Shown: piece after piece, positions 4,430 to 47,664 of the stretch
How positions within the stretch are numbered: position 1 is the stretch's first letter
How the letters are laid out: each line of letters begins with the position of its first letter
Source: Oscillospiraceae bacterium
GTDB taxonomy: Bacteria; Bacillota; Clostridia; Oscillospirales; CAG-272
Reading direction: 5' to 3'
DNA length: 64,000 nt
Assembly (NCBI GenBank): GCA_015063395.1
Contig: SVUF01000001.1
Location: 1,336 to 65,335, forward strand
The notes under the pieces: model-generated
The model's database searches: none
The model's input: only the letters and a program-made list of their open reading frames with translations
Told to the model about the DNA's origin: nothing
Position numbers and translations under genes: made by a program

Positions 4430-5200
4430 ATGGGTAACAGAAGAAAGAGAACGGTAATTGCCGGAAACTGGAAGATGAATATGACTCCTGCTCAGGCAAA
4501 GGAGCTTGTTTCACAGATTTACAGCAAGGTTAAGGGAAGAAAGGCTTGTGACATCGTTGTATGTGTACCTTTCGTTGATATTCCCGTTGTAGCTTCAATG
4601 GTTAAGGGATCAATCATCAAGGTTGGCGCACAGAACGTACACTACGAGAAGAGCGGTGCTTTCACAGGAGAAATTTCTGCTGATATGCTCAAGGAGTGCG
4701 GTGTTCAGTACGTAATCGTTGGACACAGTGAGCGCAGACAGTATTTTGGAGAAACAGACAAGACTGTAAATCTCCGTACACTTGCAGCTCTTGAGGCAGG
4801 TCTTCGTGTAATCGTATGTGTTGGTGAAACACTTGCAGACCGTGAATCCGATATTACTCGTGAGGTTGTTGCTCGTCAGACAAAGCTCGCTCTTGAAAAC
4901 GTTACTGCAGAGCAGATGAAGAATGTAATCATTGCTTATGAGCCTGTATGGGCAATTGGAACAGGCAAGACAGCTACCAATGAACAGGCTAACGAGGTTT
5001 GCGGAATTATCCGTCAGGTAGTTGCTGACAAGTACGGTAAGGTTCTTGCAAAGTCCACAGTAATCCAGTACGGCGGAAGCATGAATGCAAAGAACGCAGA
5101 AGGACTTCTTTCTATGAACCACATCGACGGCGGTCTTATCGGCGGCGCTTCTCTCAAGCCCGATGACTTTGCTGCCATCGTTCTCGCAGCTCAGGAATAA
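4430..5200 (+). CDS. tpiA: triosephosphate isomerase
   Basis: TIM hallmarks are present (AGNWKMN, VIVGHSERR, AYEPVWAIGTG, YGGS), and AAGGAG lies upstream. Confidence 0.95.
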   Translation: MGNRRKRTVIAGNWKMNMTPAQAKELVSQIYSKVKGRKACDIVVCVPFVDIPVVASMVKGSIIKVGAQNVHYEKSGAFTGEISADMLKECGVQYVIVGHSERRQYFGETDKTVNLRTLAALEAGLRVIVCVGETLADRESDITREVVARQTKLALENVTAEQMKNVIIAYEPVWAIGTGKTATNEQANEVCGIIRQVVADKYGKVLAKSTVIQYGGSMNAKNAEGLLSMNHIDGGLIGGASLKPDDFAAIVLAAQE

Positions 5201-5223: not shown

Positions 5224-5690
5224 GGGGAGAAACTTTTTGAAAAAAGGTTTCTCCCCGTACCCCTCTTCAAAAACTTTAGGAAATAGAGAAATTTATCGTT
5301 TTTTGCTTGTGCGCAAATTTTTCACGAATAAAATATATTTGTTTTAGGGGTGCAGCGTCACGCTGCCTTTTTGAAAAAAGGTTTCTCCCCGTACCCCTCT
5401 TCAAAAACTTTAGGAAATAGAGAAATTTATCGTTTTTTTGTTTGTGCGCAAATTTTTCACGAATAAAATATATTTGTTTTAGGGGTGCAGCGTCACGCTG
5501 CCTTTTTGAAAAAAGGTTTCTCCCCGTACCCCTCTTCAAAAACTTTAGGAAATAGAGAAATTTATCGTTTTTTTGCTTGTGCGCAAATTTTTCACGAATA
5601 AAATAATTTGTTTTAGGGGTGCAGCGTCACGCTGCTTTTTTCAAAAAGTTTCTTTGGTGGGGTAGGGCAAAGCCCCCAAAAAAATAATCA
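5224..5690. repeat. Tandem array of a ~134-bp modular intergenic repeat (three full units plus a diverged fourth start)
   Basis: The landmark tttttgaaaaaaggtttctcccc recurs at 5234, 5368 and 5503 and, diverged, at 5636 (periods 134/135/133). Each unit contains the hairpins GGGGAGAAAC..GTTTCTCCCC (complete only in unit 1) and GCAGCGtcaCGCTGC. The array ends in ggtggggtagggcaaagccccc. Confidence 0.9.
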
Positions 5691-5701
5691 AAGGAAATGA
5701 A

Positions 5702-7147
5702 ATGAATAGATATAAGAAGCTGATGGCTAATTCGGGAATGATAGCCATAGGAAATTTCGGATCGAAACTTTTAATATATTTTTTGATCAGGTTTTACACG
5801 GCGTATCTTACACCTGAAATGTACAGTACGGCGGATCTGATCACACAGACGTCGAAGCTTCTCATGCCGATCATGTCCCTCGGAATCGCCGAGGCGGTAT
5901 TCAGATTTGCTTTGGATAAAGAAAATGATAAACGCGAGGTATACTCGGCAGGGTTATATATCCTTGGCGCAGGATCTTTGCTTTTGATACCCGTGTTTAC
6001 GGTATTTACCGTTATGGGTCTTTTTGACGGGTATTCATATCTGATAGTACTGTATGTAATAGCGGCAAATCTTCACGGAGTAACGACCTTATATATAAGA
6101 ACGAAGGACCATTTCAAATTTTTTGCAGTACAGGGAATAATCAATACCGGAACAATGGTGGTACTGAATATTTTGTTCCTTGCCGTATTTAAAATGGGGG
6201 TTGAGGGATATGTGCTGTCGGGAGTAATTGCAGATTTGTTCTCGACCTTTATAGTATTTGTAAAGGAAAAGCTTTGGAGGGACATCGTACTGCCCAAAAG
6301 GATTGATAGGAATATCTTCCGCAAAATGCTGAAGTTCAGCTTGCCGATGATCCCAACCAATATTTTGTGGTGGGTGACCAATGTTTCCGACAGATATGTT
6401 GTAAAGTATTTTGAAGGAGATTTTGCCAACGGACTGTATTCGGTGGCGTATAAGATTCCGTCACTGCTTGTTTTGATATGCTCCATATTCATTCAGGCGT
6501 GGAACTATTCATCGGTTAAGGAAGAAAACGAAAAGGAACGGAAGAAGTTTTTCAGTACGGTATTTTCAGCATATTCGGCAATACAGTTTTTGGGAAGTTC
6601 AGCAATAATGCTGGTGCTTGATATTCTGGTGGTCATGCTGTTTGACCCTAAATTTCACGGAGCGGCATTGTATATACCGACATTGGTGTTTTCAACGGCA
6701 TTTTCAAGCCTTGTAACGTTCCAGGGAAGTGTATATACACTGAATAAGAAAAGCATGAATCTGCTGTATACAGCAATAACTGCGGCTCTTGTGAATGTTG
6801 TTCTGAATTTTGTATTAGTTCCAAATTCTCTGTTTGGAGTTAAAATGGCGGGACTTGGAGCAATCGGAGCGGCAATAGCAACGCTTATCAGCTATGTGGT
6901 GGTGTTTGCTGTCAGAGCTATCAATATTAAAAAGGTATATCCTTTTGATATGAAGATCGGGTATCTCGTGGCAAACGCTGTTTGCGTGGGGATACAGTGC
7001 ATAGTTGCAACACTTCGACCCGAAGGTTATATTTTCTATCAGATCCCGATTTTTATAGCAGTGATAATAATAAACTTAAAATCCCTTTCGGCAACGTTTA
7101 AAAAGCTGATTTTCAAGGATAAAAAGCCTGAAATGATAGATAATTGA
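5702..7147 (+). CDS. polysaccharide/oligosaccharide flippase family protein (MOP/Wzx-SpoVB-like, multi-TM)
   Basis: 481-aa polytopic membrane protein. Its N-terminus (KKLMANSGMIAIGNFGSKLLIYFLIRFYT) and overall hydrophobic pattern are typical of polysaccharide biosynthesis (Wzx/MurJ superfamily) proteins. Confidence 0.7.
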   Translation: MNRYKKLMANSGMIAIGNFGSKLLIYFLIRFYTAYLTPEMYSTADLITQTSKLLMPIMSLGIAEAVFRFALDKENDKREVYSAGLYILGAGSLLLIPVFTVFTVMGLFDGYSYLIVLYVIAANLHGVTTLYIRTKDHFKFFAVQGIINTGTMVVLNILFLAVFKMGVEGYVLSGVIADLFSTFIVFVKEKLWRDIVLPKRIDRNIFRKMLKFSLPMIPTNILWWVTNVSDRYVVKYFEGDFANGLYSVAYKIPSLLVLICSIFIQAWNYSSVKEENEKERKKFFSTVFSAYSAIQFLGSSAIMLVLDILVVMLFDPKFHGAALYIPTLVFSTAFSSLVTFQGSVYTLNKKSMNLLYTAITAALVNVVLNFVLVPNSLFGVKMAGLGAIGAAIATLISYVVVFAVRAINIKKVYPFDMKIGYLVANAVCVGIQCIVATLRPEGYIFYQIPIFIAVIIINLKSLSATFKKLIFKDKKPEMIDN

Positions 7148-7172
7148 AGAAAAACAGAATTGAATAAAAAAG

Positions 7173-7210
7173 CCCCGACAGATTTTTCGGTCTGTCGGGG
7201 TATTGTTTTG
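7173..7210. terminator. Bidirectional-looking intrinsic terminator hairpin between convergent genes
   Basis: Perfect 10-bp stem ccccgacaga (7173-7182) / tctgtcgggg (7191-7200) with T-rich flanks. A near copy occurs at 55137-55166. Confidence 0.7.
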
Positions 7211-7241: not shown

Positions 7242-7574
7242 TTAATCTCCCGGTCTTGGATTGTTTGGCAAAGGCACTCCGTTTTCATCTCTGTTTATTG
7301 GAGTTGCTTTAAGATGAAAGTGTATGCTTTTGCATGGACATACTAAATTCATTTCATATTTTGAGTTTGAACCTCTATGAGTAAAATCTCCTCCGCATCT
7401 TATAACTTCACACCATGTATATACCTGTGACATCAGTCGTGGGCACATACCGGCGGGACATTCATATGTAAAGACGAACTTATCTCCTTTTTCAAAACCA
7501 AGTCGACAATTAGCTGATCTACCTTCAATAGCTGTCAATTCAAATTGCCAATCTTCTACTACCCATTTTTTCAT
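7242..7574 (-). CDS. small Cys-rich protein, TIGR04076-like (function unknown)
   Basis: 110 aa with the pattern C..G...GD.F.F....P.G.CP...(W)...GG.F.....CP, reminiscent of the TIGR04076 family. The assignment is from memory only. Confidence 0.45.
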   Translation of the reverse strand: MKKWVVEDWQFELTAIEGRSANCRLGFEKGDKFVFTYECPAGMCPRLMSQVYTWCEVIRCGGDFTHRGSNSKYEMNLVCPCKSIHFHLKATPINRDENGVPLPNNPRPGD

Positions 7575-7618: not shown

Positions 7619-8152
7619 TCAAGCTTTAAAATACCATTTCATAGGATTAGTATATATATAATTTCGTTTTGTTTCATAATCCTCTCTGTTGCGAATAATA
7701 TGTTCTGCTGAGGACCTTTGGAATATTTTTTCTATACCATATTGTTGTTTGCAAATACGGGATGTTAACGATTTAAAAGCACAGATCACATCATCCAACG
7801 TAGGGGAGGGGCTTGCTCCTCCCGCTATTTTATGCAAGAATATAATTGCGTGTATGTGGTCTGGCATAATTACATAATCCTTGATAGAAACGGTTGGAAA
7901 TCTTTTCTCTATCAAGGATAATTGTTCTTTTGCGATCTTTCCGCAGGGCTTTAGTTTTACGGTATATTCGGGAGGAGCAAGCCCCTCCCCTACGTACAAA
8001 CCGGTGGTTTTGTCTATAAAAGCGAGATCGGTTTTAATTACTTCGGACAATAGTTGTTTTCTGTCCCTTGTGCAAATAGTAACAAAATACAATTGCTTCG
8101 AACTGTAATCAAAATTCTTCAATCTGGTGGATTTTCTTTTTGGAAGTTCCAT
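7619..8152 (-). CDS. REP-associated tyrosine transposase (RAYT) / IS200-like Y1 HUH transposase family protein
   Basis: 177 aa with an HUH motif (MPDHIHAII) and a C-terminal Tyr helix (RNYIYTNPMKW). The N-terminus (RLKNFDYSSKQLYFVTICT) is typical of the COG1943/RayT family. Confidence 0.8.
   Translation of the reverse strand: MELPKRKSTRLKNFDYSSKQLYFVTICTRDRKQLLSEVIKTDLAFIDKTTGLYVGEGLAPPEYTVKLKPCGKIAKEQLSLIEKRFPTVSIKDYVIMPDHIHAIIFLHKIAGGASPSPTLDDVICAFKSLTSRICKQQYGIEKIFQRSSAEHIIRNREDYETKRNYIYTNPMKWYFKA
7798..7824. repeat. Left arm of a perfect 27-bp inverted repeat inside the RAYT ORF
   Basis: acgtaggggaggggcttgctcctcccg. The exact reverse complement is found at 7969-7995. Confidence 0.95.
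7969..7995. repeat. Right arm of a perfect 27-bp inverted repeat inside the RAYT ORF
   Basis: cgggaggagcaagcccctcccctacgt is the reverse complement of 7798-7824. The arms are separated by 144 bp. Confidence 0.95.
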
Positions 8153-47522: not shown

Positions 47523-47664
47523 GGGGAACTTTTTTTCAAAAAGTTCCCCTATAACCCCTCAAAAACTTTTGGAATTGTTGTATAAATAACTGAATCCTTT
47601 TATTGAAGTTTTTTGATCCAAACTTTTTTACAAAAAAGTTTGGTGGGTGTGGGGCAAAGCCCCA
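47523..47664. repeat. Mosaic of hairpin repeat modules filling the thrS-proS spacer (same architecture as 9866-10033)
   Basis: The modules are ggggaactttttttcaaaaagttcccc (47523-47549), cccctcaaaaacttttgg, a 39-mer at 47606-47644 identical to 9995-10033, and ggtgggtgtggggcaaagcccca (47642-47664). Confidence 0.9.

Follow-up and report, generated by a model that had tools for sequence, protein, structure and literature searches.

REP-associated tyrosine transposases (RAYTs, or TnpAREP) are the textbook 'domesticated transposases' and are tied to their repetitive extragenic palindromes (REPs). Here we describe a RAYT-type gene in a 64-kb stretch of contig SVUF01000001.1 from an Oscillospiraceae bacterium (64,000 nt, hereafter the window), which holds two matched, inverted, GTAG-headed hairpins inside its own open reading frame (ORF). 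REPtrons and systems of RAYTs with REP doublets forming hairpins (REPINs) have been described in a series of papers (Nunvar 2010, PMC2817692; Bertels & Rainey 2011, PMC3116915; Ton-Hoang 2012, PMC3333891; Messing 2012, PMC3479197; Corneloup 2021, PMC8266576). Di Nocera 2013 (PMC3733652) reported REPtrons, REPs overlapping the ends of RAYT genes, and REPs lying in frame in other genes. Quentin 2018 (BMC Genomics 19:475, PMC6006769) described tnpAREP genes of subclass 2.4 into which REPs are inserted in frame between the HuH motif and the tyrosine; the main text judges these insertions to be peripheral to the active site. An intragenic REP in a RAYT gene is, on the evidence of that main text, of an already known kind. 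In the published picture, REPs lie on either side of the gene and, in one subclass, are occasionally inserted in frame after the HUH motif; the arrangement found here is tighter. Compared with the main text of Quentin 2018, its apparently new parts are the paired layout bracketing the HUH motif and the prevalence of this layout in Clostridia. As argued below, the two arms are probably in-frame copies of the cognate REP of the gene, held under a DNA-hairpin constraint.

The inverted repeat (7798-7824 and 7969-7995) has arms of 27 nt that are 100% complementary and separated by 144 nt. Both arms lie in frame within the ORF, one on each side of the HUH motif MPDHIH (Table 1; arms are numbered in gene order), and are translated as YVGEGLAPPEY and AGGASPSPT. 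In each arm, GTAG precedes a hairpin of 8 bp, GGGAGGGG-CTTG-CTCCTCCC, in which one pair is G·T. The 24-mer GTAGGGGAGGGGCTTGCTCCTCCC occurred exactly twice in the window at up to three mismatches, that is, in the two arms, while 0 occurrences were expected from 100 shuffles. Neither this search nor a generic scan for GTAG hairpins revealed a further REP copy in the 64 kb; the arms were the only GTAG-headed GC hairpins, and a GTGG hairpin at 47643 was at chance level. Rfam gave no match at the arms. These results bear out a preliminary description of the stretch, which had reported the coordinates of the perfect repeat, the minus-strand translations of its arms, the hairpin in each arm, the RAYT-type HUH identity of the gene, and the absence of any other doublet associated with it. 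The gaps of 21 and 44 bp to same-strand neighbors, given in the same description, were confirmed by ORFs and profiles.

The locus was compared with the described systems. As in REPtrons and REPIN-RAYT systems, a Y1 HUH gene, present once in the window, is accompanied by inverted GTAG palindromes, each gene has its own REP type, and the best structural match of the protein is TnpAREP bound to its REP. The inverted GT[AG]G-headed palindromes that characterize a REPtron are represented by the two hairpins, but these lie within the ORF. Whereas classical REPs are intergenic, flank the gene, and number tens to hundreds per genome, both copies here are coding and no other was found in 64 kb. With regard to REPINs, the locus has both the inverted pair and the long hairpin, no population was seen in the window, and the differences between arms among relatives do not preserve the long hairpin; unlike in a REPIN, the spacer consists of 144 nt of essential coding DNA. 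The locus also resembles IS200/IS605 elements, in which a Y1 HUH enzyme gene lies between hairpins recognized as single-stranded DNA, a recognition that is an established feature of the insertion sequences and a presumed one here. In those elements, however, the end hairpins are subterminal, lie in non-coding DNA, and point the same way on one strand, and the whole element moves as a unit and is found in multiple copies. Neither ends nor copies of this kind were seen here, and the tyrosine motif is Y-x3-NP and not Y-x3-Q. Finally, Rickettsia palindromic elements and in-gene REPs (PMC3733652) are likewise short in-frame palindromes translated in surface loops of intact proteins. Those insertions are sporadic and lie in unrelated host genes, whereas the host gene here is that of the presumed REP's own enzyme, with matched copies at two recurrent positions.

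The 177-aa protein scored 18.2 bits against Pfam Y1_Tnp and 65 bits against NCBIfam REP_Tyr_transpos, under the curated cut-offs of 23 and 80, respectively. Its assignment was therefore based on profile and fold matches. A profile of 71 relatives (alignment A2), searched against PDB sequences, matched E. coli TnpAREP (4ER8) at E 7.8e-13 and ISDra2 TnpA at ~2e-3. When the AlphaFold model of the protein (predicted local distance difference test score, pLDDT, 92.1) was compared with the PDB by Foldseek, the best match was 4ER8, the structure of TnpAREP in complex with a REP hairpin. The 30 best PDB fold matches were all Y1 transposases, 4ER8 being followed by IS200/IS605 enzymes (ISHp608, ISDra2, and IS200 TnpA). 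Profile and predicted structure thus support the classification of the gene product as a RAYT/TnpAREP-type HUH protein.

The position of the protein within this family was examined by means of its motifs. A search for homologues returned 15,942 cluster representatives at E <=1e-3, and the best 150 of these were used for peptide-level comparison. Class 2 enzymes carry the tyrosine signature Y-x3-NP, as opposed to Y-x3-Q in IS200 (Quentin 2018, Table 1, PMC6006769); this signature is present in the window protein (YIYTNP), and YIxxNP was found in nearly all 150 representatives. According to the main text of the same paper, TnpAY1 subclass 2.4 (Bertels group 4) has the motifs NH[IFV]H, WQ, and YIxNNP, a core of ~146 aa, and a median length of 194 aa. 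Its REPs, as given there, have the same form as the present arms (e.g., GTAGGGGCGAAAAATTTTTCGCCCCTAC), namely GTAGGG and a stem of 8-12 bp, and occur as GT[AG]G-headed hairpins in frame in the RAYT gene, which also has a variable insertion after the HUH strand, at the beta3/alphaC position; the arm 2 loop of the AlphaFold model occupies that position. The window protein shares the Y-x3-NP motif with this subclass but has DHIH and FQ in place of NH[IFV]H and WQ, together with YIYTNP, in 177 aa. The wider clade shows a mixture of motifs: in the 150 representatives, NHuH was counted 78 times and DHuH 50 times, FQ 74 and WQ 27, and YIxENP 30 and YIxNNP 24. Because of these departures and this mixture, the clade looks, from its motifs, like either a Clostridial branch of subclass 2.4 or a sister group to it. 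The survey of Quentin 2018 covered mainly Cyanobacteria and Bacteroidetes, as far as its main text indicates, whereas the present genes come from metagenome-assembled genomes (MAGs) of Clostridia. That main text (Figure S10 aside) contains no second, pre-HUH copy at beta1/alphaA, no matched pair bracketing the HUH motif, no alternative position in the 5' untranslated region (UTR), no arm-to-arm covariation, and no compensation within an arm.

We next asked how widely the arrangement occurs at the DNA level. The sample consisted of 10 genome loci and 80 metagenome loci (L numbers), and 91 genes with 26-79% protein identity were scored. Because the metagenome loci were collected with the HUH peptide pattern and not by arms, the sample is unbiased towards arms. 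An inverted repeat bracketing the HUH motif, with a score of at least 18, was found in 60 of the 91 genes, while none of 273 dinucleotide shuffles reached 14. This family-wide pattern rules out chance or a one-off insertion. Where both arms lay in the ORF, arm 1 started at a median of 128 nt before the Pro codon of MPxHxH and arm 2 started at a median of 42 nt after it, and the same two loop positions were occupied across proteins down to ~30% identity. Some relatives were without any arms. There were 44 distinct arm cores, and GTAGGG was invariant in 55 distinct arms; the arm sequence varied from gene to gene and was common to both arms of one gene. The bases preceding GTAG, in which a conserved CT cleavage dinucleotide was looked for, were only pyrimidine-rich. 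The encoded peptides differed completely between relatives, yet stayed mutual reverse-complement translations: VGEGLAPP/GGASPSPT, VGRGLAPA/AGASPRPT, VGQGLAPA/AGASPCPT, VGDGALDVP/GTSKAPSPT, VGVGALDDP/GSSKAPTPT, VGEDIILP/GRMISSPT, and VGRPLAAA/AAASGRPT. Such peptide pairs in homologues had been mentioned in the preliminary description, and the statement proved true for the best 150 representatives and the DNA of the 91 genes. The arms thereby account for the recurrent low-complexity peptides of the form 'VG....P / G....PT' in these proteins.

Covariation between the arms was measured in an anchored alignment of 45 arm pairs with 24 pair columns (A3). In this alignment, 97.1% of cells were paired, as compared with 63% after shuffling and 41-48% with the partner slid, and 366 cells changed on both sides against 103 in shuffles. 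Changes on both sides were seen in 18 of the 24 pairs, the other six being the invariant head. Since the genes of A3 were picked for having repeats, 60/91 against 0/273 is the unbiased figure. The nucleotide covariation suspected earlier is thus present; its reading as a sign of selection for pairing between the arms was not supported, as described below.

Comparison of the sequences showed that the constraint lies on DNA and not on the arm peptides. Among six close homologues, the codons of invariant residues were identical at 10 of 14 columns in the arms but at only 9 of 71 elsewhere (Fisher p = 1.8e-5). Arm 2 was read in two frames, giving ..PT in 45 genes and ..PLQ or ..SLQ in 7. The position of the copies was also shown to be labile between relatives. 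Besides the layout with both copies in the ORF, arm 1 lay upstream of the start codon, in the 5' UTR, with arm 2 still in the post-HUH loop, in L008, L009, L021, L056, L064, L070, and L074; both copies were outside the ORF, as in the classical REPtron layout, in L028, L040, L086, L087, and L088. One REP, GTAGGGGTCGGCGyCCTCGACGACCC, was found in all three layouts, and its carrier proteins are just 41-51% identical; therefore, conservation of the REP exceeds that of the protein, and the location of the REP shifts readily. The arms provide a clear case of a DNA-structure constraint overriding codon choice within an ORF.

The differences between the two arms of a gene indicated which structure is constrained. 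Identical arms were found in 28 of 55 distinct arm pairs. Among the arm-to-arm differences, 22 were in hairpin loops or unpaired positions, and 6 were double changes that kept each arm's own stem (L020, L021, L024, L044, L057, and L071), each costing the inter-arm duplex two mismatches. The remaining differences comprised 5 that kept a wobble and 2 that broke a pair, and none fell in GTAG. G·T wobbles were located on the GTAG strand in 16 cases and on the other strand in 2 (p = 0.0013), and the folding energy was lower, i.e., the fold was better, on the GTAG strand (p = 7e-4). The GTAG of arm 2 stands on the template strand, which the mRNA does not contain. Because the differences fell in loops or were compensated, and because wobbles and folding were strand-specific, selection appears to act on GTAG and the hairpin of each arm and not on the long duplex. 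In terms of sequence, the constraint was thus shown to target the GTAGGG head and the arm's own hairpin on the GTAG strand, which is the strand that a RAYT would read.

These data bear directly on the possibility that a 27-bp duplex in the transcript curbs the expression of a potentially toxic nuclease, via RNase III or a translation block, and that the likeness to REPs is incidental. When folded, the 236-nt RNA closed the 27-bp stem at -96.3 kcal/mol (z = -9.5 against shuffles). Arm 1 lies ~10-40 nt upstream of the start codon in several relatives and could affect initiation there, and Di Nocera 2013 (PMC3733652) speculated that REP hairpins down-regulate RAYT expression. However, the six double changes mismatch the inter-arm duplex and the 22 further differences are in hairpin loops; in both arms the wobbles stand on the strand bearing GTAG, and in arm 2 this is the non-mRNA strand; and both copies are outside the ORF in some relatives. 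An RNA duplex would also leave the invariant GTAGGG and the self-complementarity of each arm unexplained. We therefore regard this explanation, which was one of three readings proposed in the preliminary description, as unlikely; the mRNA duplex in genes with perfect arms still forms but looks like a by-product. Another of the three, a domesticated REPIN insertion, came nearest to the evidence, and the third was a possible autoregulatory site for binding or cleavage.

Under the favored explanation, in which the arms are copies of the cognate REP, each arm would represent a GTAG(GG) head with a short GC-rich hairpin, the single-stranded DNA structure that TnpAREP/RAYT enzymes bind and beside which they cut. 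The inverted copies, arranged as in a REPIN or a minimal REPtron, would be housed in two surface loops, one before helix A and one after the HUH strand. In the AlphaFold model, the arm 1 peptide is a loop, with a pLDDT of 72-78, that joins the two strands (36-41 and 62-67) of a beta-hairpin located between beta1 and helix A, and the arm 2 peptide is the loop that leads from the HUH strand (99-106) into the following helix (119-138). The encoded enzyme may recognize each arm as a hairpin in single-stranded DNA, reading the coding strand in arm 1 and the template strand in arm 2. Co-evolution of enzyme and REP would keep the arms matched, possibly helped by copy-correction between them. Location of the REPs within the ORF would keep enzyme and substrate linked in a compact locus without intergenic room and may guard the REPs from loss, and the arm peptides would be tolerated by-products of translation. 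If so, the enzyme genes of a large Clostridial clade carry a matched inverted pair of their own presumed recognition hairpins in two fixed loops, and the dozens of REP variants co-varying between arms would form a natural table of enzyme/REP specificity pairs. In keeping with REPs, the same or closely related GTAG hairpins were found elsewhere in some relatives (L045, L053, L064, and L052); in L002, L004, L045, L053, and L064 they formed intergenic inverted pairs or dispersed copies at kilobase distances.

Several points weigh against this explanation. That the encoded protein recognizes the arms is extrapolated from E. coli and other TnpAREP systems, and the protein itself falls below the curated RAYT cut-offs of Pfam and NCBIfam and has FQ where subclass 2.4 has WQ. 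Because this REP has no further copy in the window and the flanks of 43 of 62 loci were free of additional copies, a dispersed REP family is hypothetical for this genome. The covariation count from A3 is partly circular, the set having been chosen for inverted repeats. Template switching or gene conversion could keep the arms identical without selection for matching. Moreover, a perfect 27-bp duplex also forms in the mRNA, so that an RNA-level side effect is possible alongside the hairpins.

Putative extra copies of the gene's own REP in L002 (~6700-6830) and L004 (~1420-1500) turned out to be inverted pairs, in intergenic DNA, of another GTAG REP that is related to it, GTAGGGCGGGGGCTTGCTCCCGCC, of the 'VGRGLAPA' type, located 2.4-2.8 kb from the RAYT gene. 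Therefore, those genomes contain more than one REP type.

An inversion between the arms was found in the nearest syntenic relative, L091 (contig CBCQKN010000003.1 of GCA_965126855.1, a MAG contig of 116,770 nt). At L091 3106-3315, the 5' and 3' parts of the RAYT gene were on one strand and the HUH segment was on the other, with breakpoints exactly at the arms. The flipped segment was 75% identical to that of the window over all 146 nt, similar to the flanks (72-77%), and all three gene pieces were intact; re-flipping the segment in silico restored an intact, full-length ORF. The homologues P0177, which is encoded on L091, and P0169 were colinear with an in-silico gene having the inter-arm segment flipped. 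Two short contigs, L093 and L094, contained one inverted junction each. The fold-back contigs L092 and P0272 were treated as probable assembly artefacts, and of the short ORFs on long contigs that start at MPDHIH, regarded as candidates for further inversions, the two examined proved to be a deletion (L095) and a pseudogene (L096).

These observations raise the possibility of an invertible cassette, in which the inverted REP pair lets the 144-nt HUH segment flip, through host recombination, template switching, or the enzyme itself, and so switches the gene between intact and broken states, L091 being one captured OFF state. The clean inversion in L091 with its restored ORF, the single junctions in L093 and L094, and contigs ending at an arm (L006 and L011) are in line with this possibility. 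Nevertheless, we consider it quite unlikely. Only one complete case was seen among >1000 close homologues. Inverted repeats are a classic source of assembly errors because they confuse assemblers, and the anomalous short contigs come from similarly numbered ENA analysis records with MEGAHIT-style k141 names. The inverted state destroys the enzyme, which therefore could not flip itself back, and copies outside the ORF and the hairpin-level constraints would be left unexplained. A real but occasional inversion is more likely than a regulated switch. Should the inversion be real, it would provide a HUH nuclease with a self-contained on/off mechanism. This lead, the paired architecture, and the quantitative evidence of selection on hairpins within an ORF deserve further attention.

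Arm-containing units of ~14-26 codons were tandemly duplicated in several homologues, in up to five copies. The arm 1 unit was present twice in P0004 and P0039, and the arm 2 unit twice in P0002 and P0003; tandem units were also observed in P0126, P0251, P0257, P0129, P0151, P0185, P0193, and P0263. They resemble local amplification as in REP clusters or slippage at hairpins. In addition, damage centered on the arms was seen at three loci: a 5'-truncated RAYT gene with its breakpoint at arm 1 and a second REP type just upstream (L068 917-1001), a 1-nt deletion within arm 1 that frameshifts the gene (L095 1900-1923), and a decayed pseudogene with three degenerate arms (L096 1779-2090).

It is conceivable, though decidedly unlikely, that the arms are selfish or neutral insertions of REPs into two permissive loops, without a role for gene or host, and owe their identity solely to quasi-palindrome template switching or gene conversion. 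In-frame REPs are known from many unrelated genes (Di Nocera 2013, PMC3733652), and tandem arm units (e.g., in P0004, P0039, P0002, P0003, P0126, P0251, and P0257), the decayed or frameshifted arms of pseudogenes (L095 and L096), and the armless relatives would suit such insertions. The occupation of the same two loops by 44 REP sequences in proteins down to ~30% identity, the invariance of GTAGGG with stems kept through compensation, and the one REP that is more conserved than its carrier proteins argue for constraint instead. Copy-correction alone would erase, and not create, the compensated differences within arms. A protein-level function, in which the peptides VGEGLAPP and GGASPSPT serve as functional loops and their sequences give rise to the DNA repeat, would fit the near invariance of these peptides among close homologues but was rejected as extremely improbable, given the two frames of arm 2, the non-coding arm 1 of some relatives, the frozen synonymous sites, the wholly different peptides that are still reverse-complement translations of each other, and a model confidence that is lowest at the arm peptides, as expected for loops.

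Table 1. Coordinates of the RAYT gene and of the elements of its inverted repeat in the window
Feature	Position	Strand	Basis or description
RAYT/TnpAREP-type Y1 HUH gene, 177 aa	7619..8152	-	ORF call, profiles, fold match
HUH motif MPDHIH, residues 96-101	7850..7867	-	Translation; M96, P97, H99, and H101 invariant in alignment A2
Catalytic tyrosine motif YIYTNP, residues 165-170	7643..7660	-	Translation; Y165 and I166 nearly invariant
Arm 1 (gene order)	7969..7995	-	GTAG head and hairpin on coding strand; Y-VGEGLAPP-E, residues 53-62
Arm 2 (gene order)	7798..7824	+	GTAG head and hairpin on template strand; coding-strand reading A-GGASPSPT, residues 110-119
Arm 1 hairpin on GTAG strand	7970..7989	-	8 bp including one G·T, loop CTTG
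Arm 2 hairpin on GTAG strand	7804..7823	+	8 bp including one G·T, loop CTTG
Inter-arm segment, 144 nt, 48 codons	7825..7968	-	Helix A, beta2, HUH strand

The RAYT gene belongs to a same-strand string of genes encoding two class I Glu/Gln tRNA synthetases, a metallo-beta-lactamase (MBL)-fold protein, and a TIGR04076-like protein. It is separated by 21 bp from the upstream Gln/Glu-tRNA synthetase gene and by 44 bp from the downstream TIGR04076-like gene. The TIGR04076-like protein is Cys-rich and 110 aa long (7242-7574, minus strand). Its gene is the only neighbor conserved with the RAYT gene, and in L091 alone (2510-2842, 82% aa identity). The neighbors differ in all other close homologues, which argues against simple vertical synteny. 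No synteny with glnS, gltX, or MBL was found among close homologues except in L018 (2-2377), where a 42%-identical RAYT gene adjoins an MBL-fold gene and gltX (79% aa identity to the gltX of the window). There, the RAYT gene is upstream of MBL/gltX and divergent, so that the neighborhood of the window appears in a rearranged form, and the closer homologues had no neighbors in common with it.

Just past the TIGR04076-like gene, the same-strand string that includes the RAYT gene ends at a strong, terminator-like bidirectional hairpin (7172-7201), whose 13-bp stem has T-runs on either side. Farther along, the intergenic region between a triose-phosphate-isomerase-like ORF (4430-5200) and a polysaccharide-biosynthesis ORF (5702-7147) contains a 135-nt tandem repeat (5233-5647; 3.1 copies, 97% matches), which creates a spurious minus-strand ORF of 87 aa. 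Two antisense ORFs, 7689-7877 (+) and 7881-8108 (+), cross the arms; as these are near-palindromic, the same peptides, VGEGLAPP and GGASPSPT, are encoded once more. Gene callers report such antisense ORFs in rearranged contigs (P0177 and P0169).

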